A model generated the notes under the pieces. The model was not told the origin of the DNA. It searched no databases and was given only the letters and a program-made list of their open reading frames with translations. Below, piece after piece: positions 6,594-31,040 of a stretch of DNA of 64,000 nt. The stretch is from an uncultured Gemmatimonadota bacterium (GTDB lineage: Bacteria; 4572-55), in NCBI GenBank assembly GCA_964404765.1, contig CAYOLL010000002.1, positions 6,604 to 70,603 on the forward strand, read 5' to 3'. Both the position numbers and the translations under genes were made by a program. Within the stretch, counting starts at the first letter, position 1. Each line of letters starts with the position of its first letter.

Positions 6594-6743
6594 TTTAAAT
6601 AACTTTGGGTTTTGATATAAATGCTTGGCGCTACGACCCTAAGGGTTTCGCTTTTTAACCCTTAGGGTTTTGGCCTCTGCAGTGAAAACCCTAAGGGTTG
6701 AGGAGCAAACCCTTAGGGTGAGTTTACCCAAAGTTATTAAATT
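6594..6743. repeat. Family-1 MITE-like element, copy 1 (~150 bp, 16-bp terminal inverted repeats, four CCCTAAGGG/CCCTTAGGG palindromes)
   Basis: Terminal inverted repeat tttaaataactttgggt ... acccaaagttattaaa. Internally it alternates ccctaagggtt and cccttagggtt. It is nearly identical to 30892-31040. Confidence 0.7.
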
Positions 6744-7145
6744 GATGATCCTAAGTTTCACGAAGTTCGTCACCTAATTTATGCATCAAGCGTCTTAATG
6801 ATTCTTCGGCTTGAAACGGAGCTTGCGGCGGGTAAAGCCTTCAGGCATAATATTTGTTAAGATGTGTTAGTTAATTCCAGACAGTTTGCCATGTTACATT
6901 GCCGGCCTGAAAATGGCAAGCGAAAACTTCCATTTCAAGGTTGGGAACAAAAATGGCGCTTTCGGTCGCGAGTCATGTTCAGTTTCCGACAAGTTTTCCC
7001 TGTTTTTTTTGCTGGTTGGATTTACGGAATGCAGGCAGGACGGCATTTGCGTTGCCGATGGATAACGGCATGAATATTGCCAATAAGAAGGCTTTACAAA
7101 TCGTGCAGTTTAGCGAATCACCGCTTTTACAGGAAGGAAAACACA

Positions 7146-10100
7146 ATGAAATGCAACTGGAAGCTTGTCATTTGCCTGGCGCTGATGATTTGCCGATCCG
7201 TTTTGGCCGGCGAAACCGGCAAAATTGTCGGCACGGTGACGGATAAATATAGTAAGGAACCGCTCGCGGGCGTCAGCGTCCGAATTGAGGGAACAGATTT
7301 GGGGGCAAAAACCGATCCGAACGGACAGTATTGTATTATGGCCCCAGTCGGGCAATTTAGGACGCGTTTTAGCTCCGTTGGGTATGTGTCGACAGTTATT
7401 AGAGATGTACAACTCTTGCCTGATCAAACGCTCACCCTCAATATGGAGCTACAAGAAGATGTTCTCATTTGCGGCACAAATATATTTGACTTTAGCCAGA
7501 TGCTAAAATCTATCAGCCCGACAAACAGCGCTCAGACGATCTTCGCCTCCGACATTGACCGGCAGCCGATCCGTTCGTTGAGCGACCTGATCGGACGGCA
7601 ACCGGGCGTGACCCGCTACCTGCCGGAAGAAACCGCGTCCGGCCAGCGCGAGCTCATCTTTCGCGGCGGGCGCAGCGCCGAAGTCGATTGGCAGATGGAC
7701 GGTTTTTCCATCACCGATCCGGCCGGCGGCTTGAACTTGCTGTCCGTGCCGTTGGCGGCGATTCGGGCGGCCAACGTGAATCTGGGCGGCTTTGGCGTCG
7801 AAGACGGGCGTTACGCTTCCGGCATCGTCAATCTCATCGGCCACAGCGCCGACGCGGCTTACAATGCCGGTTATCACGCCAACATCGAAACAGCCACGGA
7901 TAACGTCGTCGGCTCAGGCTTTGACGATAACGCTTATCGCCTGACTCTGAGCGGGCCGCTGATTCCCTTTCCCAGCGGGGATGGTCAATCTCAATACCGA
8001 ACACGCCACAATGACAAGTATCGCTTCTTTTTCACCGCCGAGCGCACCTGGCAAGGCGACCGTTCCCCGCGCAGTGGCGTCCCGACCGACCTATTCAAGC
8101 AAGTCAGCGCCGATGAAGTCACCTTGCCCTATTCAACCGAAACCATTCCCGGCTATGGCCGACGCTTTGCCGACGCTTTGGAGCAATTGCAAGACGGTCG
8201 CCTGCCGCATAACGACCGCGATCATTGGGCCTGGTACGGCAAAGTCAACCTGGATTTTTCCCATCGTATTAAGTTGGAATTATCCACCCTCGGCTCGACC
8301 GACCAATGGCAGCGTTATCAACACAAATATGTTTTTAACGCCGAACACACGCCCTATTATGACGACAAGGCTTCGACCTGGAACGCCGCTCTCAACATCA
8401 AATTGAGTGACAAAGCGCATATCGCCTTACGTGGCCAACATTATCAAGCCGAACGCTTTCGGGGCGACGGTGTGCATCGGAAAGATTTGCTGGCTTATGG
8501 CCGCCCGCAAGACTTTTATTTGTTTGATCAAACCGATTTGTTTTATAGCTGGGACGACATTGATGGCGAAACAACGCCGGAAACACGCGAGGTTTACTGG
8601 AATCCGGAATATTGGGGTGAAGATGCGGCGGATTGGGCGCCGGTTTCGTTTATCAGCGACGGCGACGAGGGTTATGTTTATGATGATTATTTGCAATGGA
8701 AATCAACGTTTAACGCGCTGAGTCTGGACGGTGTTTTTCAGATTCACCCCGCTCATGAAATTCGGGCCGGTCTGGATTATCACCGCTATACGGTGCGCTC
8801 TTATCGCTCAATTTTTCCAGCTCATAACGCCGTTCACTTTTTGGATGACCCGGAATTAGCCGAAGAAGATACCGACGCCTATGGCTATCGCTACAATCCG
8901 CGCACGAATCGCCTGGAAGAAGCGGACGATCCGGCCGGTAACGGCTGGGACGGGCCGCGCGAACCCAAAACGACCGCCTTTTACTTTCAAGATAAAATGG
9001 AATACGAGCGCGTGACGCTGACAGCCGGTATCCGTGCGGATGCTTTTGACGCCAACACCTATTGGTTTAAAAACTTGTATTATCCATTGAGAGGTTCTGA
9101 TGACTGTGATTTTGACAGTGAATTTGGCTGTGATTTCGATTGGAGTTGGCAACGTCTGGATCAGGAGGATCTGAAAAAAGTTGCGATGAAAACAAGTATC
9201 AGCCCGCGCTTCAGCATTGACTTTCAAACCGGGGATAACACATATCTCTCTGTTACATATGGCCATTATTATCAATTACCGGCCTTTAACATCCGATACA
9301 ACGGGTTTAAATTTTTAGAGCATCAATTTCTTCGCGGCAGGTATTTTTATCCGTTAAACAATGCGGATTTAAAGCCGGCCAAAACGGAATTTGCGGAACT
9401 GGGGCTGCAGCATCGTTTGAACTTACGGTCAACTGTCGGTCTGCGTATTTTTTCAAAAAACAGTTCAGATGCTCTGGAATATAGCACGACCAATTACAGT
9501 TGGTATACCTTCTTGAAAAACGGCGTATCCGGTCAAACTCAGGGTGTTGATATAACCCTGAGCACAATCTCTAAAAGCGGCCTTTTGGCCACCGCGGTTT
9601 ATGGCTATAGCTACGGGCGTAGTGAAGCTTTGGTAAATGAACTGACGTATGTGATTGCCTGGCATGGCGGGACGTCGCCTAACTCTCTGTTTCCAGCGGA
9701 CTTTGAGCAACGTCACAAACTCTTGCTCAATCTTGATTGGCGCAATCGGAATCAGGATTGGCGCGGATCGTGGCGGGACTTCCGGCGGCAGGCGGGAGTC
9801 AATGCGCTGTTTACAGCCAACAGCGGCACACCCTATACACCCACATATATTTTTAACGAAACCACGTTGGCTAACACCGGCCCCGCCCACCGTGGCGCTC
9901 CGAATTCTCACAGCAAGCCATGGACCTGGCAGATTGACTTGAAAGTCGATTATCGCCTACCATTCCAAGCTTTTGAAGGCAAACTCTACCTAACGATTTT
10001 GAATCTGCTGGATCGCAAAAACGCGGTTGATGCCTACACCGGAACAGGCGATCCGGCTTCAACCGGTTTTTTGCAAACCGAGTACGGCCAATATTACGCC

Positions 10101-10235
10101 AACGACCCTTCTATAGCCAACCCGCACGATTCCTCCGGTCTGACCGGCGTCCAAAAATATCGCCTGGCCGAGCAAGACCCGAATATGTATGACATTCCGC
10201 GCTTGATCCGCGCCGGGCTGGAGCTGCGCTTTTGA
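7146..10235 (+). CDS. TonB-dependent receptor-like outer-membrane protein with an N-terminal carboxypeptidase-regulatory-like domain
   Basis: Signal peptide, then 'GKIVGTVTDKYSKEPLAGVSVRIEG...DPNGQY' (CarbopepD_reg-like), then a plug-like region '...LIFRGGRSAEVDWQMDGFSITDP'. The C-terminal residue is Phe ('GLELRF'), typical of OM beta-barrels. The start was chosen at ATG 7146, which follows the RBS aggaagg, rather than the upstream ORF-track start at 7077. Confidence 0.7.
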   Translation: MKCNWKLVICLALMICRSVLAGETGKIVGTVTDKYSKEPLAGVSVRIEGTDLGAKTDPNGQYCIMAPVGQFRTRFSSVGYVSTVIRDVQLLPDQTLTLNMELQEDVLICGTNIFDFSQMLKSISPTNSAQTIFASDIDRQPIRSLSDLIGRQPGVTRYLPEETASGQRELIFRGGRSAEVDWQMDGFSITDPAGGLNLLSVPLAAIRAANVNLGGFGVEDGRYASGIVNLIGHSADAAYNAGYHANIETATDNVVGSGFDDNAYRLTLSGPLIPFPSGDGQSQYRTRHNDKYRFFFTAERTWQGDRSPRSGVPTDLFKQVSADEVTLPYSTETIPGYGRRFADALEQLQDGRLPHNDRDHWAWYGKVNLDFSHRIKLELSTLGSTDQWQRYQHKYVFNAEHTPYYDDKASTWNAALNIKLSDKAHIALRGQHYQAERFRGDGVHRKDLLAYGRPQDFYLFDQTDLFYSWDDIDGETTPETREVYWNPEYWGEDAADWAPVSFISDGDEGYVYDDYLQWKSTFNALSLDGVFQIHPAHEIRAGLDYHRYTVRSYRSIFPAHNAVHFLDDPELAEEDTDAYGYRYNPRTNRLEEADDPAGNGWDGPREPKTTAFYFQDKMEYERVTLTAGIRADAFDANTYWFKNLYYPLRGSDDCDFDSEFGCDFDWSWQRLDQEDLKKVAMKTSISPRFSIDFQTGDNTYLSVTYGHYYQLPAFNIRYNGFKFLEHQFLRGRYFYPLNNADLKPAKTEFAELGLQHRLNLRSTVGLRIFSKNSSDALEYSTTNYSWYTFLKNGVSGQTQGVDITLSTISKSGLLATAVYGYSYGRSEALVNELTYVIAWHGGTSPNSLFPADFEQRHKLLLNLDWRNRNQDWRGSWRDFRRQAGVNALFTANSGTPYTPTYIFNETTLANTGPAHRGAPNSHSKPWTWQIDLKVDYRLPFQAFEGKLYLTILNLLDRKNAVDAYTGTGDPASTGFLQTEYGQYYANDPSIANPHDSSGLTGVQKYRLAEQDPNMYDIPRLIRAGLELRF

Positions 10236-10270
10236 ATTAAAAGCCCACGCTCTGGACATCCGGCGCAGAC

Positions 10271-11521
10271 TCACGGCGCATCCCGAAACTCTTTTACCAG
10301 CCAGCCGAACACTCCGCACAATGTCGCCAAAATGGAAATCAAGCCAAAGACATACGAAATCGGCATCAGCTCGGCCATGATGCCGGTCAGGGCCACGGAA
10401 ATCGCGGTTAAGCCGTAGACTGCTACCGAGATCATGCTAAAAATCCGCCCTTGCATTTCTTTGGGCACCAGGGTTTGGATCAGCGTGGGCCGCGGCACAA
10501 TAATCAGCGGGATGACAGCGGCGTGAGCAATGATGGTCAAATACATGCCCCAGAACGTATCGACCCACAGCAGCGGCAAAAAAGTAATCCCGTCCAGCAT
10601 AATGCCCCATAGCAGCATGTGGCTGTTGCGGAAGTACTTCCCGTAAAAATTGAGCGCGACGGTGCCGATAATCATGCCGACGGCATAGGCTGTTTCGCCG
10701 TAGGCATACATAACGGCATCCAGATGCAAAACCTCACGAATGAAAATAGGCGGGCCGATAATTGCCGGGCCCATAATAAATAAATTATCGGCGGCGGTTA
10801 TGATCAACAAGCCCCAAATGACCTTGTTTTGCGCGGCATAACGCAACCCGGCCATCACATCGGCAACGGCTGATTTTAGCTCTGTTCGCAGAATCGTCAG
10901 CGTTAGATTGGGTCGTTTTTGCGGGGCGCTTTCGGCGCGGGGCAGCGTAATTTTAAGAATAAACATCAGCGAAACAAAAAATGTCACCGCGTCAAAGGTA
11001 AACAAATGCGTCACGCCAAACAGCGGAATAACCGCCGCCGCCAAAACCGGCCCCAATAAAACCGCGAATTGCCAGGAAGTCTGAATCAAAGAATTGGCCT
11101 GCAACAGTTTATTCTCCGGCGCTAAAAGAGCCACGGCAGTATCACGGGCCGGCATAAAAATCGTATCGAATATCGCCACGCCAAATGTAATTATCGCTAA
11201 AATAAAGCCCGATATTGAACCCGTATAAAATAAAAAAGGGATCGTCAACACCAGTAATCCACGGGCAATATCGGCCAGAATCATTAAACTTCGGCGATTA
11301 AAACGATCGGTCAGCGCGCCGCTCAACAAGCCGAAAAGCAGCACCGGTAAATAGCCGCTCATCGCCACCAGACCCGTTGCCAGCTTGGAGCCGGAAACTT
11401 CCAGCATCAACCACAACAACCCAATCTGGTACACCGAATCACCGGCCTGCGAGATGATTTGGCCACTCCATAAATAGAAGATGTTTCGATTGATAAAAAT
11501 CCGCTTTAGCCAGTTCCGCAT
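10271..11521 (-). CDS. MFS transporter
   Basis: Twelve predicted TM segments with a hydrophobic profile throughout. The N-terminus 'MRNWLKRIFINRNIFYLWSGQIISQAGDSVYQIGLLWL' is typical of MFS_3/EntS-like exporters. The alternative upstream start is 11590. Confidence 0.8.
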   Translation of the reverse strand: MRNWLKRIFINRNIFYLWSGQIISQAGDSVYQIGLLWLMLEVSGSKLATGLVAMSGYLPVLLFGLLSGALTDRFNRRSLMILADIARGLLVLTIPFLFYTGSISGFILAIITFGVAIFDTIFMPARDTAVALLAPENKLLQANSLIQTSWQFAVLLGPVLAAAVIPLFGVTHLFTFDAVTFFVSLMFILKITLPRAESAPQKRPNLTLTILRTELKSAVADVMAGLRYAAQNKVIWGLLIITAADNLFIMGPAIIGPPIFIREVLHLDAVMYAYGETAYAVGMIIGTVALNFYGKYFRNSHMLLWGIMLDGITFLPLLWVDTFWGMYLTIIAHAAVIPLIIVPRPTLIQTLVPKEMQGRIFSMISVAVYGLTAISVALTGIMAELMPISYVFGLISILATLCGVFGWLVKEFRDAP

Positions 11522-11782
11522 GAGTGTCTTCCTTATTTGTTTGCTATTGCTGCGCCGCCATCGTCTTTCGCATAATATGATGTGACCCATTATTCATCAA
11601 GCAAAATTTCCGGACATCCTGTAACCCTTATGAGTGAATCCCGTTTCCGCACCCAAACGGAACTTAATTTTTATCGACGGGGTAAAAAAATTGAAAACTT
11701 TTTGTGAAATATGACAGTTACAAAAATTTTACGTTAAAATTGAATTTAACATCCTGACCCTGCAACTTCAAAAAACATCCCT

Positions 11783-12376
11783 ATGGCCTTTATCCAAAGT
11801 AAGCACGCCAAGTACGCTACCAAAAATCCCATCAGCCGCTTTCTGGTTAAAAATTTTTATGCCACCTTATTTAATCTCGTTACGCCGCTTAAGCTGGACT
11901 CTTTATTGGATGTCGGCTGCGGCGAAGGCATGGCTTTAAAAAGATTAGAACCGCTTCTGGGTCGTGTCCGCTGCCACGCCATTGATCTCGATCCGGCTGA
12001 AGTCTCAGATGCCCGCAAAAATCTGCCCTTCTGCCAGGTTTCAGTTGGCAGCGCCTACCAAATTCCTTTGGCCGACAACGCTGTTGAATGTGTACTTTGC
12101 ACCGAGGTTTTGGAACATCTGGAGCAGCCTGAGCGCGCATTAGCCGAGTTTTATCGTGTCACAAGGCGCTATGCAATTTTAACAGTCCCCCGTGAACCGA
12201 TCTGGCGTATTTTGAATATGGCACGCGGCGCCTATTGGTCCGATTGGGGCAATACGCCCGGCCATCTGAATCACTGGAGTACAACTGCGTTTAAGGATTT
12301 TGCTAAAACGCGTTTTCGGGTGGTGGAGTTCCGAACGCCGCTACCCTGGACGGTGCTGCTTTGTGAAAAGCAATAA
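11783..12376 (+). CDS. Class I SAM-dependent methyltransferase (type 11-like)
   Basis: Motif I 'LDVGCGEG'. Motif 'CVLCTEVLEHLEQPERAL' is typical of Methyltransf_11. Confidence 0.75.
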   Translation: MAFIQSKHAKYATKNPISRFLVKNFYATLFNLVTPLKLDSLLDVGCGEGMALKRLEPLLGRVRCHAIDLDPAEVSDARKNLPFCQVSVGSAYQIPLADNAVECVLCTEVLEHLEQPERALAEFYRVTRRYAILTVPREPIWRILNMARGAYWSDWGNTPGHLNHWSTTAFKDFAKTRFRVVEFRTPLPWTVLLCEKQ

Positions 12377-13274
12377 TTTTGCCATCTGCTTTAACCTGCT
12401 GCTTTATGTCTCGCTGCTATTTCTCGCCTGGCATCTCTATCGTCATGAATATTTGGTTATCCCAAAAATTGTTTCGATTTCGGCTTTGGTATTCTCCGTC
12501 GCGGCGCTGATCTCCGGTTTTTTTCTGACCATTACCATCTGGCAGAAATTTCTTGCTAATGCTGGATTTACCGTGCGCTGGCCGGATTGTCTGGCGGCGC
12601 AGGGTCTGTCGGTCTTTGGCAAGTATATTCCGGGCAAGCTGTGGGTATTAGTAGGCATGACCGGTTATATTGCTCAACAGTACGGATTACCGGCCTCACA
12701 TATCGCCTTAGTCGCTTTGCGCAATCAATTCAGTCAGCTTTGGGTCGGCTTGATCTTAGGAATCGTCGGGTTGATCTGGGCCGGCGGCAATTGGCAATTG
12801 GTTAGCTTAAGCGCCATTCCGCTGGGAATACTGACCGTCGCCCTGTTCAGCCGGACGGCAAACACGATTACAGCTAAATTGCTGCAAAAAATATTGGGCA
12901 AAAACTTGACCATCCCTGTATTTTTATACCGGGATCTGCTGCCGCTGCTACCCTATTTAGTCAGCAATTGGCTGCTGTGGGGGGTTGGCTTCTATTTGCT
13001 GGCCAGCAGCATTTTTGCCACACCCGTTCCGTTGGCAACCGGTCTGGGCTTTGTTATTTCGGCCACGTTAGGTGTTTTGGCGGTCTTTGCGCCCGGCGGG
13101 TTGGGCGTGCGTGAAGGCATCCTGGCCGGATTCCTGATACAGCTTAATTTCACCCCTACGCAGGTTGCGACACTGACCGTCATATCGCGTTTATGGTTTT
13201 TAATCGGCGAAGTCATTATGTTTATACTTGGCGCATTTTTTTCAAAACTGCGTAAAATAGAACACATAACCTGA
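12300..13274 (+). CDS. Flippase-like integral membrane protein (lysylphosphatidylglycerol-synthase TM-region-like, UPF0104)
   Basis: Polytopic membrane protein ending '...GGLGVREGILAGFL', as in LPG_synthase_TM-type proteins. The true start is probably the GTG at 12363, which overlaps the methyltransferase stop. Confidence 0.55.
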   Translation: MLKRVFGWWSSERRYPGRCCFVKSNNFAICFNLLLYVSLLFLAWHLYRHEYLVIPKIVSISALVFSVAALISGFFLTITIWQKFLANAGFTVRWPDCLAAQGLSVFGKYIPGKLWVLVGMTGYIAQQYGLPASHIALVALRNQFSQLWVGLILGIVGLIWAGGNWQLVSLSAIPLGILTVALFSRTANTITAKLLQKILGKNLTIPVFLYRDLLPLLPYLVSNWLLWGVGFYLLASSIFATPVPLATGLGFVISATLGVLAVFAPGGLGVREGILAGFLIQLNFTPTQVATLTVISRLWFLIGEVIMFILGAFFSKLRKIEHIT

Positions 13275-13277
13275 ATT

Positions 13278-13445
13278 CTTCATTAGCCACGAAGTCACCA
13301 ATGCACAAAGAATCACTAAGATTTTAAATTAAAAGATGTTATGACGTTTTTTAGGTGACGAAGATGTCGGCAAAAAATAAATTTTTTGCATGACCTTCGT
13401 GAAACTTAGTGCTTTCGTGTCTTTGTGGCAGGTCTTTGAATTTTT
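13278..13445. repeat. Large imperfect palindromic intergenic element with arms of the form ccacgaag..cacaaaga..cactaag
   Basis: Left arm gccacgaagtcaccaatgcacaaagaatcactaag; right arm cttagtgctttcgtgtctttgtggc. Related arm sequences flank MITE copy 1 at 6560-6589 and 6750-6775. Confidence 0.4.
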
Positions 13446-13462
13446 CAGGATAAAAAGATAGA

Positions 13463-15409: not shown

Positions 15410-15520
15410 TTGCGTAGCCTGAGCGGGTTAAAAAAAACGGCGCGCCGATAAAGCCCATCAAACGAAAGAGTTATCCGTATAAATCCGTTTCATCCGCGTA
15501 AATCCGTGTTCTATCTTTTC

Positions 15521-15985: not shown

Positions 15986-15994
15986 TGTGCAATC

Positions 15995-16058
15995 TCCAGC
16001 GTAAAAAATAAAGTCGGGAAGATCGTCGCCTGTTGGCAATGATAATCTTCCCGACTTT
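15995..16058 (-). terminator. Rho-independent terminator downstream of the response-regulator gene
   Basis: Perfect 14-bp stem aaagtcgggaagat/atcttcccgacttt, followed on the minus strand by a T-rich tract (TTTATTTTTT). Confidence 0.6.
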
Positions 16059-16092
16059 GTTTCGGTAAATGTTTTTTGTTGATGGTTGCGGG

Positions 16093-17816: not shown

Positions 17817-17890
17817 AAAAAAACCTTAGGGTCTCATACCAAAACTGAAAATGATTTGCACACAATCGGAGCATAAACCCTAAGGGTCTT
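17817..17890. repeat. Degenerate partial copy of the Family-1 CCCTAAGGG element
   Basis: aaaaaccttagggtctc ... aaaccctaagggtctt. Only two palindromes are present and there are no clear terminal inverted repeats. Confidence 0.4.
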
Positions 17891-22113: not shown

Positions 22114-22228
22114 CTTAAAAAATTCATTCGTCCATAGTCACAAGAGTTGATTATTTACAGTATTTAAAAAATTAGCAAAAAGCATACCATGTTGATGCGC
22201 TTACGCCGGGCGTGTTCCGAATGTTCCT

Positions 22229-22408
22229 TCAAGTGGCAGCGTCTTGAGGCACCGGCGCGCCATCGGGCAAAAAGCCGACCACGTTGTCCGGCAGCACTTC
22301 CGGCGAGGAGCGTATGTTCACATTGCCGTCGGCCACAACCCGACCAATGGTGATGGCCTCGGCAGTGGCGGCGGTCAACAGGCACAGCAGCAGGAATAAA
22401 GAGCGCAT
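22229..22408 (-). pseudogene. Truncated paralog of the secreted SH3b-like protein family (59 codons)
   Basis: Encodes 'MRSLFLLLCLLTAATAEAITIGRVVADGNVNIRSSPEVLPDNVVGFLPDGAPVPQDAAT*'. It is about 90% identical at the DNA level to the 5' end of the 23336-24319 gene. It is absent from the ORF track because it is shorter than 60 aa. Confidence 0.55.
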
Positions 22409-22434
22409 GGGTAAATCCTCCGGGGTAAAGGGCG

Positions 22435-22463
22435 AATTTCCAAATCTCGCAGATTTGGAAATT
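22435..22463. promoter_or_regulatory. Perfect 13-3-13 palindrome upstream of SH3b-family copy 1; a candidate operator
   Basis: aatttccaaatct-cgc-agatttggaaatt lies about 27 bp upstream of the ATG on the minus strand. An identical palindrome occurs at 25271-25299. Confidence 0.4.
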
Positions 22464-22535
22464 CTATGGCGTTGAGTGTTATTTGACTGGCAGTGCGGAT
22501 GAATTTCGTGCCCGTCCGGGCGTTATTTGAGGAGG

Positions 22536-22874: not shown

Positions 22875-23209
22875 TCAGTGGTAAACTCCGGCGTGCACTT
22901 TTTGTAAAACTCCATCTTTTCCGTATCATAACGGGCATTGATATTGAAAGTGGTGATCACGGCCAATTGCTCCTTTTGTTCGTCGCTGACCGGCAGGTTT
23001 GATTTTTCCGCCAGCCGGGCCAGTTGATGCGTGAACGGCGGGTATAAATCCACCGTTTGCACGTAATATGCTTTGAGCAATTTCTCTATCACCAGATGCC
23101 CGACAAACAAACACCAGTGGTAGTCTTCTTTTTCGTACAAATGGCGCATCGTATTGAAATCCAGATCAGAACTGGCGCTCCAATATGTCACAAGTTCATC
23201 TTTGGTCAT
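22814..23209 (-). CDS. HEPN-domain protein (partner of the adjacent nucleotidyltransferase)
   Basis: '...HWCLFVGHLVIEKLLKAYYV...' is a typical HEPN helix. It is 131 aa and overlaps the MNT gene by 30-60 nt, as expected for a co-translated toxin-antitoxin-like pair. Confidence 0.7.
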   Translation of the reverse strand: MTKDELVTYWSASSDLDFNTMRHLYEKEDYHWCLFVGHLVIEKLLKAYYVQTVDLYPPFTHQLARLAEKSNLPVSDEQKEQLAVITTFNINARYDTEKMEFYKKCTPEFTTEWVTRIEELRVWIKVRLLPS

Positions 23210-23335
23210 TTAAATTCATCTCGGTTTTTGGTTTTGGGCGCAAAGTTTAGCAACGTAATTTCTATTCTACCGACGCTGAGCGTTATCGTCAACAGAAAAT
23301 ACCGCAGCGCCTGCAGCCGGTCAATGCCTTCGGCA

Positions 23336-24319
23336 TTATTTGACAGGCGTTTCGGTGCGGGAGATGCGGACGTATTCGCTGCCGTTGAAATCGTAAGCTT
23401 CATTTATTCGAAGGTATTGATGAGGTTCATCATTGTAAGGGTCATCATCTTCTTTTGCTACGACCTCAATTTCAAGCTCCAAATCTTCATCAAGATTTTT
23501 AAACAACCCACGCCCTCTGTATAAGTATCCCTCACATCCACCATATGTGCGGAAATTTCCACCACATGATTTGTAATCACCATCAATAAAGCGATATACT
23601 CCCCAACTACACCCACTGCAATCATCCCCATCGTCACAATTTTCCAAAATCAACTCTTTTGCAGAATCACCTACCAAATTTCTGGCAGCAATAAAAGCAG
23701 AACGTACTCCATAGCACCCTTCGTCACACGTTCGCGGCGAACCAATAGCTATTCGTTTATATGATGAAGATGTTCCTATTTTATCTAAAATGCACGGCAT
23801 TGAAATATAGCGAGCTGTGTCTGAAGTATCTGAACCGCAACTGATTCCATATTCTACAAAAACTTCGTAATCCTCATCAAAGTCAACATTTACAAGCTTT
23901 AGCGCGTTTATCGATGTATTAGATTGAGAGGTCTCACAATATGGGTTTTTCGCATCGATTTTTTCAGCGGTTTCAATAAGATCGTTATAAGAATAAAATT
24001 CGGTCACTTCGATTAGTTCTAACGAAAAGCCAAATATCCAGTCATTCCCGACCGGGTCGGCACAACTGGGACACTTTTTTCGTCCGGTCAAGTCATACCA
24101 ATAATCCACCACGCCGTCAATCGTATCCGGTTGGGCGGTTTTGTCAAAAATAATCACCGTCGCGCCATCGGGCAAAAAGCCGACCACGTTGTCCGGCCGC
24201 ACTTCCGGCGTGGAACGCACATTTACATTGCCGTCGGCCACGACCCGGCCAACGGTAATGGCTTCGGCGGTGGCGTCAATCAACAGGCAGAGCAGCAGGA
24301 ATAAAGAACGCATGGACAA
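23336..24319 (-). CDS. Secreted Cys-rich protein with an N-terminal bacterial SH3-like domain; the full-length member of the local paralog family
   Basis: Signal peptide 'MSMRSLFLLLCLLIDATAEA'. 'ITVGRVVADGNVNVRSTPEVRPDNVVGFLPDGATVIIF' fits the SH3b pattern. There are about 20 Cys residues downstream and an acidic C-terminal tail. Confidence 0.6.
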   Translation of the reverse strand: MSMRSLFLLLCLLIDATAEAITVGRVVADGNVNVRSTPEVRPDNVVGFLPDGATVIIFDKTAQPDTIDGVVDYWYDLTGRKKCPSCADPVGNDWIFGFSLELIEVTEFYSYNDLIETAEKIDAKNPYCETSQSNTSINALKLVNVDFDEDYEVFVEYGISCGSDTSDTARYISMPCILDKIGTSSSYKRIAIGSPRTCDEGCYGVRSAFIAARNLVGDSAKELILENCDDGDDCSGCSWGVYRFIDGDYKSCGGNFRTYGGCEGYLYRGRGLFKNLDEDLELEIEVVAKEDDDPYNDEPHQYLRINEAYDFNGSEYVRISRTETPVK

Positions 24320-24336
24320 ATCCTCCAGAGTCGGCT

Positions 24337-24711
24337 TTATCGGTTTAGATACGCATAAACGATTTCGTCCAAAATATCTTCCAGCGTCGGCCTGAGGCTC
24401 TCTTCAGTCCCATTGGGCGTGTGTTTGTGATCAGGATAGGTTGAGATTTGCGGAAAATGCGGCGTGTTATCGTAGCGAAAAATCATCTGCTTGTTCTTTG
24501 TCTGATAATGATAGCGATAGGAAACCCGTTCGATTCGTGTATCGAGTTGCACATACTCGGTGACATGCAACTCGCTTTCATCCAAAAAGATAATTTTGCC
24601 CTCAAACAAGCTGTCTTTTTCGGAACGCTTATCTTTTTGAAAATGAACCTGCCGAATAAACGGGTGGCGCAGCGCCAGTTCAATCTCGGCAAAATAATCA
24701 TCCAGCGTCAT
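24337..24711 (-). CDS. Small uncharacterized protein, downstream member of a 4-nt-overlapping two-gene module (toxin-antitoxin-like)
   Basis: 124 aa, His-rich ('RYDNTPHFPQISTYPDHKHTPNG'). It overlaps the upstream 93-aa gene by ATGA. It lies inside the variable paralog island. Confidence 0.5.
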   Translation of the reverse strand: MTLDDYFAEIELALRHPFIRQVHFQKDKRSEKDSLFEGKIIFLDESELHVTEYVQLDTRIERVSYRYHYQTKNKQMIFRYDNTPHFPQISTYPDHKHTPNGTEESLRPTLEDILDEIVYAYLNR

Positions 24712-24989
24712 AGCCGAACCTCGCCCAAACGCTGACAGTCCGCCGTCAGCCGCTGAAAAATTTGGAACTCAATGGCCCAGCGCATGATGTCGGCGTCATC
24801 ACCCATCTCGCCCCGTTGGTAGCGTTGATAAAAATCGGCGGATGAGAGGGCATACTTTCGTTCGTAATGACGCAAATGCTTTTGGGTGGTTTTGAGACTC
24901 GCCTGCAAAAGCTGCGCTTCCCGGTTTAGCGCGCCTTGCACCAAACGCACGGTTTGCGCATCATTCAATTGCAATTGTAAAGCGGGCAT
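24708..24989 (-). CDS. Small uncharacterized protein, upstream member of the two-gene module
   Basis: 93 aa, helical and charged. Its stop overlaps the start of 24337-24711. Confidence 0.5.
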   Translation of the reverse strand: MPALQLQLNDAQTVRLVQGALNREAQLLQASLKTTQKHLRHYERKYALSSADFYQRYQRGEMGDDADIMRWAIEFQIFQRLTADCQRLGEVRL

Positions 24990-25152
24990 TTTTGCTTCCT
25001 TTGAGTTAGCGGTTTTCTTGAATTTTAGCCGTCATTCAAGATAAACAAGTTGCTTTTCTTACCAAACACCTTTTATACGCCATCGGGCAAAAAGCCGACC
25101 ACATTGCCCGGCCGCACTTCCGGCGTGGAGCGCACATTCACATTGCCGTCGG

Positions 25153-25245
25153 CTACCACCCAATGGTTATCGCCTCCGCCCTTCGACTTAGTTCAGGACA
25201 AGCCAGGGCGGTCAACAGGCAGAGCAGCAGGAATACAGAACGCAT
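25153..25245 (-). pseudogene. Disrupted 5' fragment of a third SH3b-family paralog
   Basis: 'MRSVFLLLCLLTALACPELSRRAEAITIGW*'. The signal peptide is conserved, then a ~35-bp insertion/substitution introduces a stop. The same upstream palindrome is present. Confidence 0.5.
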
Positions 25246-25270
25246 GGGCAAATCCTTCGGATACAGGGCG

Positions 25271-25299
25271 AATTTCCAAATCTCGCAGATTTGGAAATT
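25271..25299. promoter_or_regulatory. Second copy of the perfect 13-3-13 palindrome (candidate operator)
   Basis: aatttccaaatct-cgc-agatttggaaatt, identical to 22435-22463. It is followed by a conserved ~25-bp block ttatttgacaggcgattcggtgtgg, also seen at 23336-23360 and 22478-22500. Confidence 0.4.
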
Positions 25300-25411
25300 C
25301 TGTGACGCTTGGGCGTTATTTGACAGGCGATTCGGTGTGGAATATCCAATGTATTCCATGTCGTTAACGTCGTAAAGTTCTTTACGTTGAAAGTGACGCG
25401 GGAGAGCGCCC

Positions 25412-26560
25412 TCAATTTTCCAGGTCCGCTAAGCGACAGATGAATCCCCAGCCGCCGCCAAGTTCGCTGATCGCCAATAGTAAGTCATTGCGTCCCTTTT
25501 TCAATGGCAGATAGACAGCATCGTTTTCCGGGTTGACGATGCCAAGAAAGCCGGGATCACGAAAGCTTTGGGCGCTTCGGCCGCGGTAGAGAATTGTGTC
25601 ATTCAGGAATACGCTCACATCATCGCTATAACCAAGATAGAGCTTTTTCATTTGGTCGCGGTCAGAATTGATCGTGGTTCGCGCATAAACAAGCCGTATC
25701 CCGGGTTGGAGTTCCAGCCGTTTGGAAAAGTCGCTCTGAAAGGAGACTCGCGGATGCGGGGCCTCGCGGTAGCGATAAATGACCACAAGACCGGGCGCTT
25801 CCGCTTCCACATCCTGCCAGGGCATGGTATCCCTTTCGGCGGCAGAAAGCGGGCGTTCCGGGTTACGTGCGAGCGCGTCGTACGAAGGCGACAGACTCCA
25901 CTTCGTCAGTGTGCCGGGTGGCATTGGCGGCAATTGCCGCTCCCAGGTCGCGTCCGGGGTTGGCCGTATCTCAAAATTCGAGAAATAGGTTGCGCCGATC
26001 AGGACAGCCAGCGCCACCTGCCCTTTCTGCAAGCCGCTTTTCAGATCGTTCATCACAAACGCCGGTTTATCCATGTCCTTGACATAAAGCTTTGCCTGCG
26101 CCCCGGTCACCGCCAGCCGCAGGTGAAACCAAACATCTTTAGGAATATCTACCGGGCCGGTAAAGCCAGGCCCATTGTAGAGTTGCCAGTTTAGCCCGGT
26201 GTTGAGCACGGGGGTATATTGCAGGGCGTCGGGCAGGCCGGATTTGTGCTGGCGCAAATACACCCATTCCGTCGTCGCGCCATCGTCGCCAATCCGAAAC
26301 TGGATCCCAAAGAATCCGCGGCTGGCCGGGGTGGCCACGTCCACATCAATAACGCCGTCACGCAGTTCAAAGTCTTTCAATATCGCGGCCCCGCCATTGA
26401 GGAAGAGGCACTTACGACCTTGATACTCAACCGTCTTGGCTTCGCCTTGCAGATCCCAACGCAAGGAGTCGGCAGGAACGGCCAGCGTCGGCAATGACTG
26501 GGAATGGGCTGTGGACGTCGCCAGAAGAACATAACTCCAAAAGATAAGATGTCGAAACAT
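25412..26560 (-). CDS. Secreted protein with a DUF1080-like (3-keto-disaccharide hydrolase / laminin-G-like) N-terminal domain
   Basis: Signal peptide 'MFRHLIFWSYVLLATSTAHS'. 'KDFELRDGVIDVDVATPASRGFFGIQFR' fits the DUF1080 pattern. Confidence 0.45.
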   Translation of the reverse strand: MFRHLIFWSYVLLATSTAHSQSLPTLAVPADSLRWDLQGEAKTVEYQGRKCLFLNGGAAILKDFELRDGVIDVDVATPASRGFFGIQFRIGDDGATTEWVYLRQHKSGLPDALQYTPVLNTGLNWQLYNGPGFTGPVDIPKDVWFHLRLAVTGAQAKLYVKDMDKPAFVMNDLKSGLQKGQVALAVLIGATYFSNFEIRPTPDATWERQLPPMPPGTLTKWSLSPSYDALARNPERPLSAAERDTMPWQDVEAEAPGLVVIYRYREAPHPRVSFQSDFSKRLELQPGIRLVYARTTINSDRDQMKKLYLGYSDDVSVFLNDTILYRGRSAQSFRDPGFLGIVNPENDAVYLPLKKGRNDLLLAISELGGGWGFICRLADLEN

Positions 26561-26650
26561 CGCTTGCCTCCATGTCGGTGGTGGGTTGTAATGGCAGAAT
26601 GAATTTCCAGGTTATCCAGATCCACGCACACCCGCAGTTCGCGCAAAAGT

Positions 26651-26902
26651 TCATGCCGAGAAGGCCGCTTTTCTGACGTGAATATCCGGGTTTTGTCGGT
26701 CGGTGTGCAGCACAAACATTTCCCGCTGCGGCTTTTCGCGGTGCAATTTAGCATAGCCTTTCATGGCTGTTTCGCCATCGGGAAAGGTGTCCACAACGGC
26801 AATCTGCTCCAGCACGCGAAGATCGTTTTCCGTCCGCGCCTGAATCGCTTCGATCAGCAGCCATTGGTGGGGGAATTTTTGCCGGGCGTCTTCCCAGGTC
26901 AT
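26651..26902 (-). CDS. Small hypothetical protein (83 aa)
   Basis: ORF with a plausible start. No recognisable family. Confidence 0.35.
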   Translation of the reverse strand: MTWEDARQKFPHQWLLIEAIQARTENDLRVLEQIAVVDTFPDGETAMKGYAKLHREKPQREMFVLHTDRQNPDIHVRKAAFSA

Positions 26903-27080
26903 GCGTTGTTCTCCTTGTTTGCATCAAGTTGCGATGCCATTACAAAATCCTCTCATGGCACGAAAATGCACTTGCGCAGTTTGCGTTTAGCCGTGTGAAT
27001 CGCCAAAAAGTCGACCTTGATTTTTTTCAGCACAGGCACAACAGCAGGCAAAGCGGCGCATGGACAAACCTTTGGGTGAA

Positions 27081-29477
27081 TTACAGCAAGGCGGCTGTCT
27101 TATCGGCAACAGCGCTTAGCCGGCGCTGCTCCAGATAATTCGGGATACTCAGGCTTGGCAAGTCGGGCCGAAGCTGTGGCGCTGCAAAGGTCAATGCCGG
27201 ATCCGTCGGCGGCAGAAAGCGACCGGTCGCCGCCATTTGTACGGTTTGGTGATTGATTGTTAAAGGGTCTTTTTGCGTGGGCCGGTAGTGGGCTTCAATA
27301 TGCCGATCTTTTTCTAAAATGACTAAATGCTCGTAAATTTGACGGTCCGCTCCCGGCCATCGCAAACGAACAAAAACATGCTCATGCAAGCCGTGGCCTT
27401 CCAACTTTACCGTAACATGGCTATTTTCCTGGGTGAACTCAAATCGAATCTGCTCCTGCCGGCCGATGTTCAAAAGCCCGCCCGCCTTCGTAAAGCGCTC
27501 CGGCAAACGTGGCGCAACCCCAATCTCACGCGTCAGCATATTCGGCTGGATGCCCAAAAAGTCCTGCTGAAAATTGCGCACAAACTCTGCGACCGACCAG
27601 GCCTGCGAATAGGCGCCGGTCAACTGCAACTTGCCATTGGGCTTGGGCAAGGGTTCCACTAACTCGGTTAGCGAGCCGGGCATTCCTGTATTCAGGATTT
27701 GGTCCGCCAAATTTTGGGCTAACGCAAAGGCCAGATTTTCGTAACCAAAACGAACCAAGGCGCTGATGACCGGCCCGGTCAGCCATTGCCAGCACAAACC
27801 ATTGTGATATGCCGCATCAAAATGATAAATTTGACCGTGGTGATAAGGGTGAAATTCATCGTCCTGCGGATCGAGCGAGGCCAAGCCATGGGGATAGGTC
27901 AGGCGCGTTACTACTTGTTTTAAAATGCCGTGCTGGATAGCCGGATCATCAATCAAATCAGCCAACAGCGGCACGGTCAGGGCAAATATCTGGTTAGGCC
28001 GAATCTGTCGGTTTGGCGCATCCGCCGCGGTCAGATGATCGTAAAGAGCGTTGGTTTGCGGATCATAAAACCGAGCCATAAAATTGGCTTTGAGTTCCGC
28101 CGCCATTCCCTGCCAAATGGCCTCTTCCCGACCATGTCCGAGACAATGGGCAATTCTGGCGCTGACCTTAAGCTGGGTGAACCACAGGGCCTGAATTTCG
28201 ACCGCGCGATTGCCGCGCGGCGACCAGGCTTGCTGCCCCTGAATACGCGCATCCATCCAGGTGTCGGCAAGGTCGTGCGTCAAGAAGCCATCCTTATCAA
28301 CGAAATTTGTTTTTGCGCCATCAATCGCCCGTTTGATAATCGGAAACATTTGCTCGGCCAGACGCAGATCGCCTGTGTAGCAAATGTACTCATAAATCTC
28401 GCGAATAAACCAGGGCGTGGCATCCGTGGTATTATAGATGATGTCCGTTGGTGACGCAATCCGGTTTGGGATGCGGCCATTAAGCGGATCGCTTGCATTA
28501 TCTTTTTGATTTTGCGCGAAGTTGCTTATAATTTCCTGCGCAGCCGTAAACTGCCCGGCGACAAGACAAATTCCCGGCAAGGCAATAAAGGTATCACGTC
28601 CCCAGCACTGATGAAACCAGGGCAGACCCGCCCACAGCCCCGGCCCGTTTTGTTGCACCAGCAAATCATTTCCGGAAATCAGACACCATTGCAGCGCCCG
28701 GTCATAATCGCTCAGGTTGGTCGAAAAAGCGGTTTGTGCCAGTAAATTGCTGACCCGATTGGCCCGCGCGGAACGAAAGGCGCTGATGTCCGGCCTGGTA
28801 TCGGCAGCTTCATTCGTCTGGAAAATAAAATCTATTTTGACTTCGCTGACCGTGCCAAAATCCAGCCAACCCAAAATGCCTTTTTGACAAGAAAACTCCG
28901 TTGGCAGCTCCGCCTCACCCGGCGTGCCGGTAACCCATTGCAGCGCCGATCCACAAATATGGATGATCTGGCCGGTTGCCAAATCGGCAAAATGTAGCTC
29001 GTTTTCCGTTGCCGGCTCGATTTTCGGGGCGACGCCTGAATCCAGAAATGCCGGAATAAGCTGCACGGATCGTGGCCGATTCAATTGCAGCCGGACGACA
29101 AAGCCCGCTTTGCCCCGCAAGACCGTGAGCGTTTCCGTATAATCGTCGTACGTCCGCTGCAAACCGTCCGGACTCAATTCAATTGCCGGCGCATCGTGCA
29201 AGACTGAGACGCCATCAACCCGCCAGATAAAATCGATCAGAAAGCGGCGGCCAGCCAGCGTATAGCCGCCGTAAGTTGTGTTATAGCCGGTAGTTTGACC
29301 TTCCCAAAAACCGCCCACACCATCGACAAAGGCGTAGACGCGGGTTGGTTGCTTTTCGAGTCGAAAATTCAACAAATCGGGATGATTAGCGCTCATTGGC
29401 TTCCTATACGGACAAATGCCTGATTCAGTCGCAGAAAAATTCGTCATAAAAACAGGCGAAAGATACGGCAGGGACAT
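27081..29477 (-). CDS. Amylo-alpha-1,6-glucosidase / glycogen-debranching-enzyme-like glycoside hydrolase (GDE_C family)
   Basis: 'GLPWFHQCWGRDTFIALPG' is the hallmark of GDE_C family six-hairpin glycosidases. The protein is 798 aa. glgC lies 3.6 kb away. Confidence 0.75.
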   Translation of the reverse strand: MSLPYLSPVFMTNFSATESGICPYRKPMSANHPDLLNFRLEKQPTRVYAFVDGVGGFWEGQTTGYNTTYGGYTLAGRRFLIDFIWRVDGVSVLHDAPAIELSPDGLQRTYDDYTETLTVLRGKAGFVVRLQLNRPRSVQLIPAFLDSGVAPKIEPATENELHFADLATGQIIHICGSALQWVTGTPGEAELPTEFSCQKGILGWLDFGTVSEVKIDFIFQTNEAADTRPDISAFRSARANRVSNLLAQTAFSTNLSDYDRALQWCLISGNDLLVQQNGPGLWAGLPWFHQCWGRDTFIALPGICLVAGQFTAAQEIISNFAQNQKDNASDPLNGRIPNRIASPTDIIYNTTDATPWFIREIYEYICYTGDLRLAEQMFPIIKRAIDGAKTNFVDKDGFLTHDLADTWMDARIQGQQAWSPRGNRAVEIQALWFTQLKVSARIAHCLGHGREEAIWQGMAAELKANFMARFYDPQTNALYDHLTAADAPNRQIRPNQIFALTVPLLADLIDDPAIQHGILKQVVTRLTYPHGLASLDPQDDEFHPYHHGQIYHFDAAYHNGLCWQWLTGPVISALVRFGYENLAFALAQNLADQILNTGMPGSLTELVEPLPKPNGKLQLTGAYSQAWSVAEFVRNFQQDFLGIQPNMLTREIGVAPRLPERFTKAGGLLNIGRQEQIRFEFTQENSHVTVKLEGHGLHEHVFVRLRWPGADRQIYEHLVILEKDRHIEAHYRPTQKDPLTINHQTVQMAATGRFLPPTDPALTFAAPQLRPDLPSLSIPNYLEQRRLSAVADKTAALL

Positions 29478-29628
29478 GGATCGGGCAAGAGGAAATGGGT
29501 TTGCAAATCGAAAATAAATGCAACAATTGTCAATTTTTTTATGGAATGTGGCTCCTGGCTTAATGTATTATGCTGGCAGTCAACAAGCTGTCTGATCAAA
29601 TTCATTTTTTTTTCAAGGAGATTTTAAA

Positions 29629-30237
29629 ATGCGTCGTTTAATTTTAACTGTTTGCTGGTTTGTTCTCTGGGCAGCCACCGTTCAAGCCGATACTTTTTAT
29701 CTTAAGGACGGAACGGTCATTAAAGGCTGGATCGAAAAGGCTGATGTGGCGACTTATACGATTAAGACCAATTTAGGCGTGGTAACCATTCCGCGTGAAC
29801 AAATCCAGCGCATCGACGTTCAGGCAAATGCCGATAGTCTTAACGCAAATACCGTAACGAATCCGGGCAATATCAATGTCAATGTGCCGGAAAATCTTAA
29901 TGTCAATATGACCCAAACGGATCAGCGGGTGGGCGCAGGCTCGTCGATTATGACGATTGGCGGCGGCGCACTGGGCGTTTGCGCAGGCTTGCTCGTAGGC
30001 GGTTTAATTCTCAGCAATAGTGATGGTAATGACAATGGTGACGTGCTATTGGTGAGTGGCTTAATCGGTTTAGGTGTCGGCGCGATTATTGGCTGGAGCG
30101 CTTCCAAACCGAAGCGCCACAGCTTGCTGGAAGTTGACCGCAACTTCCGCCTGACATTGACCCAGCCGGATGTCCATCTTACACCCCTGCGCAAAGGCGT
30201 TGATGTGGAAATGGCGCTTTTATCCGCCAGTTTTTAA
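29629..30237 (+). CDS. Hypothetical secreted or membrane protein with a Gly-rich C-terminal TM region
   Basis: Signal peptide 'MRRLILTVCWFVLWAATVQA'. The motif 'DTFYLKDGTVIKGWIEK' is followed by a hydrophobic segment 'GGGALGVCAGLLVGGLILS'. Confidence 0.5.
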   Translation: MRRLILTVCWFVLWAATVQADTFYLKDGTVIKGWIEKADVATYTIKTNLGVVTIPREQIQRIDVQANADSLNANTVTNPGNINVNVPENLNVNMTQTDQRVGAGSSIMTIGGGALGVCAGLLVGGLILSNSDGNDNGDVLLVSGLIGLGVGAIIGWSASKPKRHSLLEVDRNFRLTLTQPDVHLTPLRKGVDVEMALLSASF

Positions 30238-30257
30238 CAAGAAAGCAAAAAGTCTAA

Positions 30258-30854
30258 ATGTTGACAGAAGAAAATATTAGCCGTATTTTGTATGACGATC
30301 ATCAGCCGTTAAATTGGTCTGTGGAGTTTGGCGCCGACCAGTCGGTTGAAGTCGAATTGGGTTCGGGTACGGGTCGTTTTATTGTGGATTGTGCTGCCCG
30401 CTTTCCCCGCGTAAATTTTGTTGGAATTGAAAAGAGCGGCAAATGGCTGGGCAAGACCGCCCGACGCGCACTCAGACAGCAGTTGCCAAATATCCGTCTG
30501 TTTCGGACGGATTCCGCGCAATTTTTAAGAGAGAATATTCCACCGGCCAGTGTGCAGAATTTTCATATCCATTTCCCGGACCCCTGGTGGAAAACACGAC
30601 ACTGGAAGCGACGGATATTTCAAACGGATTTTTGCGCCAATTTAAACAAGGGTTTGATCCCGGGCGGGCACGTCCATATTATGACCGATGTTGCCGCTTA
30701 TTTTAAAATTATTGTCGCAATAATGGACGAACATTCCGGCTTAAAGCGGATCGAATTTGTCGATGACCCCGAGCGCATTGTGACCAATTACGAAGAAAAA
30801 GCGCTAAAAACCGGCGGAACAATTTATAAAGTACGGTATTGGAAAGCGTGTTGA
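30258..30854 (+). CDS. trmB: tRNA (guanine46-N7)-methyltransferase
   Basis: 'GSGTGRFIVDCAARFPRVNFVGIE' and the TrmB signature 'FHIHFPDPWWKTRHWKRRIF'. Confidence 0.9.
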   Translation: MLTEENISRILYDDHQPLNWSVEFGADQSVEVELGSGTGRFIVDCAARFPRVNFVGIEKSGKWLGKTARRALRQQLPNIRLFRTDSAQFLRENIPPASVQNFHIHFPDPWWKTRHWKRRIFQTDFCANLNKGLIPGGHVHIMTDVAAYFKIIVAIMDEHSGLKRIEFVDDPERIVTNYEEKALKTGGTIYKVRYWKAC

Positions 30855-30891
30855 TGTTATCCCAATGTCATTAAGTTAAGAAACGTCGATA

Positions 30892-31040
30892 AAATAAGTT
30901 TGGGTTTTGGAGTAAATGCGCCGGATGTGTGACCCTAAGGGTTTTGCTTTTTAACCCTTAGGGTCTCTGGCCTCCTCGGAACACACCCTAAGGGTTGAAG
31001 AGCAAAACCCTTAGGGTGAACTTACCCAAAGTTATTAAAT
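30892..31040. repeat. Family-1 MITE-like element, copy 2
   Basis: aaataagtttgggt ... acccaaagttattaaat, with the same four CCCTAAGGG/CCCTTAGGG palindromes. It is more than 85% identical to 6594-6743. Confidence 0.7.

Follow-up and report, generated by a model that had tools for sequence, protein, structure and literature searches.

A small repeated palindromic element in an uncultured Gemmatimonadota genome as a probable REP doublet

What kind of sequence recurs, at a length of about 150 bp, in two intergenic regions of contig CAYOLL010000002.1 from an uncultured Gemmatimonadota bacterium (assembly GCA_964404765.1, positions 6604 to 70603 of the forward strand; this whole stretch of 64,000 nt is referred to below as the window)? 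An initial annotation, made from the sequence alone, saw in it a classic miniature inverted-repeat transposable element (MITE). The evidence presented here makes it probable that the element is a doublet of repetitive extragenic palindromes (REPs), akin to the bacterial interspersed mosaic elements (BIMEs) and REP doublets forming hairpins (REPINs), and that it is mobilized in trans by a REP-associated tyrosine transposase (RAYT) via single-stranded DNA. The earlier description was apt as far as the small size, the terminal repeats, and the independent contexts of the copies are concerned, whereas the label itself is not the one favored by the evidence, as the interior consists of hairpins of the kind that flank RAYT genes. 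The MITE reading is thus partly right, the element being small, non-autonomous, and nested, but a REP/BIME/REPIN-type identity is better supported.

The sequences at 6594 to 6747 (copy 1) and 30889 to 31045 (copy 2) belong to one and the same element, which is small, palindromic, and non-coding. Strict local alignment joins positions 6597 to 6747 to positions 30892 to 31045, and the mean column identity in a MAFFT alignment is 86%, which bears out the initial claim of two copies. Both copies are intergenic, in agreement with their description as non-coding: copy 1 lies between the divergent genes for an aromatic amino acid lyase (4855 to 6525, minus strand) and a SusC-like TonB receptor (7077 to 10235, plus strand; genes assigned by Pfam), and copy 2 begins 38 nt past the stop codon of a TrmB-like methyltransferase gene (30258 to 30854, plus strand), with a GNAT gene (31166 to 31630, plus strand) downstream. 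Because the flanks of the two copies are unlike each other (their similarity scores were reached by 121 and 43 of 300 shuffles), a larger segmental duplication is rejected, and the contexts of the copies are independent. The nearest relative contig (L121), with 55% identity in TrmB, retains the upstream gene at 49% identity and has a different gene downstream; the hairpin described below was not found in it, and the contig is too distant to be of use as an empty site. The motif CCCTWAGGG occurs at 9 sites in the window, against 0.27 expected, a number reached in none of 100 shuffles. There are 4 such sites per copy (spaced by 22, 30, and 21 nt in one and by 22, 31, and 22 nt in the other), as had been noticed initially, and one more at 17878. 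When up to 2 mismatches are allowed in the 13-mer arm, the window contains ten sites, i.e., 4 in each copy and 2 elsewhere (at 17821 and 17876), with none besides. In all, the window has two doublets, a pair of arms, and a single sibling hairpin (Table 1).

The interior 9-mers CCCTAAGGG and CCCTTAGGG had been described as perfect palindromes. This is not borne out, as both are of odd length and they are mutually reverse-complementary. The two make up the paired arms of hairpins of the form ACCCTAAGGGTT-loop-AACCCTTAGGGT. Each copy carries two such hairpins of 32 to 33 nt, with a 12-bp stem and an 8- to 9-nt loop, separated by 19 to 20 nt. Hairpin 1 has the general form ACCCTAAGGGTT-(t)cgcttttt-AACCCTTAGGGT and hairpin 2 the form ACCCTAAGGGTT-ga(g/a)gagca(a)-AACCCTTAGGGT, and, since the second loop is approximately the reverse complement of the first, the two hairpins are inverted relative to each other. 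The arms of the doublet in copy 2 are 33 nt long, 20 nt apart, and 94% complementary (28 nt and 82% in inverted repeat I16). The doublet is bracketed by the inverted repeat AATAACTTTGGGT/ACCCAAAGTTATT, so that terminal inverted repeats are indeed present, at a measured length of 13 bp rather than the 16 bp initially given; they are perfect in copy 1 and match at 12 of 13 positions in copy 2. Within the window, the terminal word AATAACTTTGGGTTTTG is confined to the two copies. Folded in its entirety, the unit forms one long hairpin, with a free energy of -76.7 kcal/mol for the plus strand (z score of -9.1; none of 200 shuffles was as good) and -66.2 kcal/mol for the minus strand, the G-U pairs giving the plus-strand RNA about 10 kcal/mol more stability. 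Conservation between the copies is uneven. Arms and terminal repeats are identical at 73 of 75 positions, as opposed to 58 of 84 in loops and spacers (Fisher P = 1.4e-6), which marks the arms and the terminal repeats as the constrained parts of the element; all four 12-nt arms are identical, the terminal repeats (25 of 26 positions) are conserved as well as the arms, and the spacers go down to about 69%. In both copies, TTAC directly precedes the right terminal repeat (6722 to 6725 and 31020 to 31023). The arm also contains CCTNAGG, but a reading as a restriction site is not needed to explain the data.

Table 1. Coordinates of the two copies, their parts, and related features in the window
Feature	Positions	Strand	Sequence, basis, or remark
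Copy 1, well-conserved core	6594-6747		Alignment to copy 2
Copy 1, left terminal inverted repeat	6598-6610	+	AATAACTTTGGGT; pairs with 6726-6738
Copy 1, REP hairpin 1	6636-6668	+	ACCCTAAGGGTT-tcgcttttt-AACCCTTAGGGT; inverted-repeat search
Copy 1, REP hairpin 2 (inverted)	6688-6719	+	ACCCTAAGGGTT-gaggagca-AACCCTTAGGGT; inverted-repeat search
Copy 1, right terminal inverted repeat	6726-6738	+	ACCCAAAGTTATT; TTAC directly before
Copy 2	30889-31045		Alignment to copy 1
Copy 2, left terminal inverted repeat	30893-30905	+	AATAAGTTTGGGT, one mismatch; word search
Copy 2, REP hairpin 1	30932-30964	+	33 nt, 94% complementary to 30985-31017
Copy 2, REP hairpin 2 (inverted)	30985-31017	+	94% complementary to 30932-30964
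Copy 2, right terminal inverted repeat	31024-31036	+	ACCCAAAGTTATT; word search
Left flank of copy 1	6553-6585		Resembles an arm of the 13278-13445 repeat; ends with CTAAG (6581-6585)
Right flank of copy 1	6751-6782		Colinear with the 13278-13445 repeat (minus orientation); begins with CTAAG (6751-6755)
Two isolated arm-like sites	17821-17888		AAACCTTAGGGTC and AACCCTAAGGGTC, 55 nt apart; arm search
Single hairpin of ACC-N5-GGT design	59659-59691		AAACCTGACGGGTTT-tgg-AAACCCGTCAGGTTT; 46 nt downstream of the 1414-aa ORF

An exact-pattern scan of public genomes, one per species, with the pattern ACCCTAAGGGTT-N6-12-AACCCTTAGGGT found the hairpin in at least 114 loci. Among the matches listed, the majority come from metagenome-assembled genomes (MAGs) of Chloroflexota with many loci each (BJ8, CHL1, “Ca. 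Leptovillus affinis,” and AMR_MDS_5888), several of which have at least 7 to 10 loci apiece. Bacteroidota are represented by Perlabentimonas gracilis and by the complete genome of an isolate, Bernardetia sp. OM2101, with four loci; further matches listed are from Desulfobacterales, a “delta proteobacterium,” Oleiharenicola (Verrucomicrobiota), “Ca. Spyradenecus” (Lentisphaerota), and “Ca. Cloacimonetes bacterium 4572_55.” In those genomes, the unit consists of one perfect hairpin, (A/G)GACCCTAAGGGTTT-loop of 3 to 6 nt-AAACCCTTAGGGTC(T). According to a crude calling of open reading frames (ORFs), the 124 instances among the matches listed comprise 107 that are intergenic, 9 inside an ORF, and 8 at the edge of a locus, with a median distance of 15 nt to the nearest stop codon. 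A doublet similar to that of the window is found in L093. A literature search for CCCTAAGGG returned only primer sequences for multiplex ligation-dependent probe amplification, which are irrelevant here.

Beside the hairpin lie siblings that share its ACC-N5-GGT design and have compensated stems (CGAAG, CCAAG, CAAAG, CTAAA, and TGACA). In the related stems CCCGAAGGG, CCCCAAGGG, and CCCAAAGGG, the arm-to-arm complementarity is always kept and the dyad symmetry within the arm is often lost, which favors a hairpin over a duplex site for a dimeric protein and weakens the alternative, offered in the initial annotation, that the palindromes are binding sites for such a protein. Beside the RAYT genes of L068 (4755 to 5084) and L052 (5201 to 5339), CCCTAAGGG and CCCCAAGGG hairpins alternate in tandem arrays with an 85-bp period. 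The L068 array could be mistaken for CRISPR, an assignment rejected because its “spacers” are a second conserved hairpin. The hairpin is also seen in two contigs classed as viral, L115 (1279 to 1308) and L116 (IMG/VR, 65% GC); the latter has four copies within 2.5 kb (4506 to 6974) and no RAYT.

RAYT-like ORFs, detected by tblastn and profile search, adjoin the hairpin in seven loci from as many genomes. The hairpin is found on both sides of a RAYT-like Y1 gene in every Chloroflexota RAYT locus (L051, L052, L057, L068, and L113) except for two with degraded copies, namely, a gene fragment in L048 with the hairpin on one side and a stop-interrupted gene in L058 with an internal hairpin only. 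The loops on the two sides of the L057 gene, gtagttt and aaactac, are reverse complements, and the RAYT-flanking hairpins of this locus share the loop motif TTGCTTTTT with the hairpin of the window. In three further loci, fetched via the protein and not via the hairpin (L117, L118, and L119/L120), a single hairpin likewise lies closely upstream of the ORF, another within it, and a third closely downstream, with stems (CCCTAAGGG, CCCTAAAGG, and CCTTTAGGG) that differ by lineage and are fully compensated. Most of the Chloroflexota RAYT-like genes also hold the hairpin in frame. This internal hairpin occupies a constant place after the HUH motif, its stem varying with that of the flanking REPs (L051, 4765 to 4798; L117, 1730 to 1762; L118, 1727 to 1759; L119, 1739 to 1771; also in L068, L052, and L058), and is translated as DPKGFLKPLGS or PRVSETLGV, depending on the frame.

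The proteins encoded by these genes are about 200 aa long and have an NHFH version of the HUH motif and a YIH[RQ]NP tyrosine motif; thus, the L051 ORF with flanking hairpins reads MSKPEPLHYDTFYHIYNRGNN...LLPNHFHF...YIHRNPQHH. Their sole NCBIfam match is NF047646, “REP-associated tyrosine transposase,” with E values down to 3e-13 and scores of 28 to 50 bits, below the curated cutoff of 80. The sole PDB match is 4ER8, TnpA_REP, whose LPEHMH and YIYINPVKHG segments align with the LPNHFH and YIHRNPQKHG regions. The family includes at least 7,995 homologs, many of them called “REP element-mobilizing transposase RayT” by JGI. In all four genomic contexts inspected (L051, 767 to 3826; L117, 1 to 113; L118, 1 to 1469 and 2206 to 3639; L119/L120, 1 to 715), RAYT-like genes are directly beside restriction-modification genes, either next to a type IIG enzyme resembling Eco57I/MmeI or flanked by HsdS and HsdM, which may reflect conserved synteny or a preference for defense islands. 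In L057 (4380 to 5600), TTAC directly precedes nearly every REP hairpin; TTAC is the target tetranucleotide of IS608.

By their motifs and published descriptions, rather than the authors' own models, these proteins are best compared with RAYT subclass 2.4 of Quentin et al. (2018), which corresponds to Group 4 of Bertels et al. (2017) and is distributed in Cyanobacteria, Bacteroidetes, and scattered other phyla, including Caldilineae (PMC6006769; PMC5581495). The similarities include the protein length, the NHFH motif, the presence of both Chloroflexi-type lineages and Bacteroidetes in the spread, and, as described for that subclass (PMC6006769), a hairpin that flanks the gene on both sides and also lies in frame inside it. 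However, the YIH[RQ]NP motif is nearer to the YIH[QN]NP of subclass 2.6 than to YIxNNP; where the W-Q pair would be expected, these proteins have EHPF or EQPF, and the hairpins have no “double foot” GT[AG]G...C[TC]AC. Given the tyrosine motif and the W-Q position, the subclass is not firmly assigned.

By definition, a REPIN or BIME is a pair of REPs that are inverted relative to each other and a short distance apart (PMC3337134; background of PMC6006769). The window element, with its two inverted REP hairpins and short spacer, is built in this way, its loops being nearly reverse-complementary as in a REPIN, and its doublet anatomy, together with the loop motif shared with L057, is the reason for reading it as a REP doublet spread by a RAYT. 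As in the REPINs and BIMEs of Pseudomonas and Enterobacteria, the two short palindromic units are extragenic and can form one long hairpin; as in a REPtron, an identical hairpin flanks a single-copy RAYT-like gene, although in genomes other than that of the window. According to this model, the unit would fold, as single-stranded DNA or RNA, into either two small hairpins or one long one. The hairpin would be the recognition structure of the RAYT (TnpA_REP, an HUH/Y1 enzyme), which would bind it on single-stranded DNA and, by cleaving and rejoining, would spread the doublets in trans to new intergenic sites. There is also a likeness to the ends of IS200/IS605 elements, which carry subterminal hairpins for a Y1/HUH enzyme acting on single-stranded DNA, with TTAC as a possible, purely anecdotal, shared feature; unlike those elements, the unit has neither a transposase gene nor a defined asymmetry between left and right ends. 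Since the RAYT would lie outside the window, we infer its part in mobilization, as well as that the genome encodes, or once encoded, such an enzyme, that the moving unit is the 150-bp element and not the single hairpin, and that the terminal repeats belong to the RAYT process.

Several observations weigh against mobilization by a RAYT. A profile search of six-frame ORFs detected no RAYT-like ORF in the 64-kb window and none in the hairpin loci outside Chloroflexota; the association with RAYT genes comes from loci titled Chloroflexota or from MAGs without a taxon title. The lineage of the window is far from Chloroflexota, the best named match to its TrmB (51% identity) being from a MAG labeled Cloacimonetes. 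Canonical REPs carry GT[AG]G, a guide tetranucleotide, at their 5' foot (PMC6006769; PMC3733652). No conserved tetranucleotide of this kind is present at the foot of the hairpins in the window or in Chloroflexota: the sequences there are CTACG/ACCC in copy 1, GTGTG/ACCC in copy 2, and (N)AG/ACCC in a variable context in Chloroflexota, where the slash marks the start of the stem. The REPs of the window further differ from those of REPINs and BIMEs in being perfect stems of 12 to 15 bp rather than imperfect palindromes, and the conserved 13-bp inverted repeat that brackets the doublet is foreign to described REPINs. Finally, only two full copies are visible in the window, so that copy number and mobility are not established, and the 150-bp composite was found nowhere else, with 0 matches in two public metagenome scans and the terminal-repeat word absent from all 121 fetched loci.

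The lack of a RAYT in the window, the missing GT[AG]G foot, the terminal repeats, and one possible 5-bp duplication keep a conventional MITE alive as a rival, if an unlikely one. Such an element would derive from an insertion sequence (IS) by deletion, a DDE transposase recognizing the 13-bp repeats would move it as double-stranded DNA, and its REP-like hairpins would be passenger sequence or a former insertion site. Like the Correia elements of Neisseria, Nezha of cyanobacteria, and RUP or BOX, the unit is non-coding and intergenic, has a size of about 150 to 165 bp, can form a long hairpin, and appears nested, and its terminal repeats are as conserved as its arms. A further argument for a MITE comes from the surroundings of copy 1. 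Its flanks resemble the palindromic repeat at 13278 to 13445, with a score that was reached in none of 300 shuffles, which makes it plausible, as initially proposed, that copy 1 is nested inside a relative of that repeat. (In this second repeat family, the arms read like GCCACGAAG..CACAAAGA..CACTAAG, and GTGACGAAG/CTTCGTGAAAC forms an internal hairpin.) When copy 1 is set against the uninterrupted repeat, CTAAG is found on both sides of it, and the insertion looks as if it had duplicated this word, which could be a 5-bp target-site duplication. However, CTAAG also belongs to the arms of the host repeat, so that the apparent duplication may be inherited. The search for target-site duplications thus yielded one candidate, at copy 1, and none at copy 2, where the equivalent boundaries read TTAAG on the left and AATAT on the right. 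The boundaries are themselves uncertain, because the similarity between the copies fades past the terminal repeats (10 of 13 and 14 of 18 positions still match) and does not stop sharply; either the true unit is larger than the core, at about 165 to 190 bp, or the two copies inserted into sequences that were alike.

Unlike the Correia, Nezha, RUP, and BOX elements, the unit shows neither a target-site duplication common to both copies nor a partner IS whose ends match its own. No autonomous IS ending in these repeats was detected in the window, and the combination of arm and terminal repeat gave 0 matches in public metagenome contigs. One candidate for a partner, an ORF with a PD-(D/E)XK “transposase” domain (PF12784; 31791 to 32681) situated downstream of copy 2 at a distance of about 750 bp, was rejected, as nothing links it to the hairpins; its 42-nt upstream region plus start (31754 to 31795) is repeated 982 bp further on (32736 to 32777) with 86% identity. 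The interior of the element shows RAYT-type REP hairpins and no deleted IS, and a MITE origin leaves unexplained why this interior exactly matches a RAYT-flanking hairpin.

There is a small chance that the element was duplicated because of its usefulness to the host rather than its mobility, serving as an RNA 3' stabilizer, a terminator, a small RNA, or a set of DNA sites for a nucleoid or regulatory protein. Such a function would fit the very stable plus-strand fold, the placement of the hairpin just past stop codons that is usual in other genomes, and the similar placement in the window of copy 2 behind the trmB-like gene and of the 59659 hairpin behind its ORF; known REPs do have secondary roles of this sort (PMC3733652). 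It would not fit copy 1, which lies between divergent gene starts and follows no 3' end. When the window was searched against Rfam 15, nothing reached the gathering thresholds, and a permissive search returned only microRNA-precursor hairpins as sub-threshold noise; consensus scans found no convincing promoter or U-tract terminator, and the loss of the within-arm dyad in related hairpins speaks against a dimeric DNA-binding site. In any case, a host function is compatible with a REP origin and is hence no true alternative to it. Least probable of all is that we are dealing with a chance resemblance or a decayed relic, in which the stem is shared by convergence or ancient transfer, the copies are immobile, and the RAYT is lost: the existence of just two full copies with about 86% identity, the absence of the composite from the metagenome scans, and the lack of a RAYT in the window would agree with this, but four identical 12-nt arms next to spacers at about 69% point to constraint or recent templating and not to free decay, and an exact 24-nt stem match plus the loop motif shared with L057 is unlikely to arise by convergence.

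Two other features of the window resemble parts of the REP doublet. The sequence at 17817 to 17890 had been interpreted as a partial copy; this interpretation is not upheld, as the sequence contains just two arm-like sites (17821 to 17833, with one mismatch, and 17876 to 17888), has no terminal repeat, and outside the arms has only GGAGCA in common with the element. To judge from its sequence, it is a degenerate or long-loop REP-like pair and not a truncated 150-bp element, which it resembles less than the long-loop arm pairs of “Ca. Leptovillus” (L015 and L069). The single hairpin at 59659 to 59691 has a sibling, GACCTGACAGGTTT, that adjoins a CCCTAAGGG hairpin in L003.

The window contains additional repeats. 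A third repeat family, with the hairpin TTCCGG-N-AAAAAC-N-CCGGAA (AAGATTCCGGTTAAAAACATACCGGAATGACA), is present in both orientations at 3512 to 3572, 34992 to 35024, and 47357 to 47434. A fourth set consists of intergenic inverted repeats (35051 to 35163, 38942 to 39013, and 42677 to 42707), with the 17-bp stems TAACCTTGCGAAGGCTT/AAGCCTTCGCAAGGTTA on either side of a 1183-aa ORF (35358 to 38909). The words AAATCCGTG and CACGGATTT are reiterated at 15470 to 15515, 52060 to 52095, and 59565 to 59606, one of the copies being about 50 nt from the 59659 hairpin. Three paralogous gene ends are about 85 to 93% identical in DNA (22250 to 22471, 24155 to 24331, and 25078 to 25307), and two of them are followed by an identical hairpin with a 14-bp stem, GAATTTCCAAATCTcgcAGATTTGGAAATTC (22434 to 22464 and 25270 to 25300). 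Inside the 1414-aa ORF (59737 to 63981), four tandem repeats of 333 bp (111 aa), 68 to 93% identical, extend from 60477 to 61775 and probably represent a repeated surface-protein domain.

The distribution of the stem raises the question of how it came to be shared. The exact stem (A/G)ACCCTAAGGGTTT occurs in Chloroflexota, Bacteroidota, Desulfobacterales, Verrucomicrobiota, Lentisphaerota, a MAG labeled Cloacimonetes, and the deep-branching lineage of the window, whereas REPINs have been described as lineage-specific and vertically inherited. Barring binning artifacts or convergence, one might tentatively suggest, as a possibility with the odds against it, that a REP-RAYT system, or the hairpin alone, has spread between phyla and has been built into composites such as this doublet. 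In a stronger version of the same idea, the 13-bp terminal repeats would, if it is right, mark a second mobilization system that captured REPs. The same stem in several phyla would be unusual for REP-RAYT systems if it is due to transfer, and inter-phylum spread, if true, would be at odds with the current notion that REPIN-RAYT systems are lineage-specific and passed on strictly vertically.

REPs, REPINs, and their RAYTs have been studied almost solely in Proteobacteria, and here the same logic is seen in a distant uncultivated lineage, in an element whose hairpins belong to a family abundant in Chloroflexota and also found in several further phyla. The element leaves the understanding of the mechanism unchanged. 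In practical terms, such repeats should be masked or annotated as REP-type elements and not as MITEs or regulatory palindromes, and the hairpin offers a handy probe both for the cognate RAYT and for asking whether REP-RAYT systems cross phyla.

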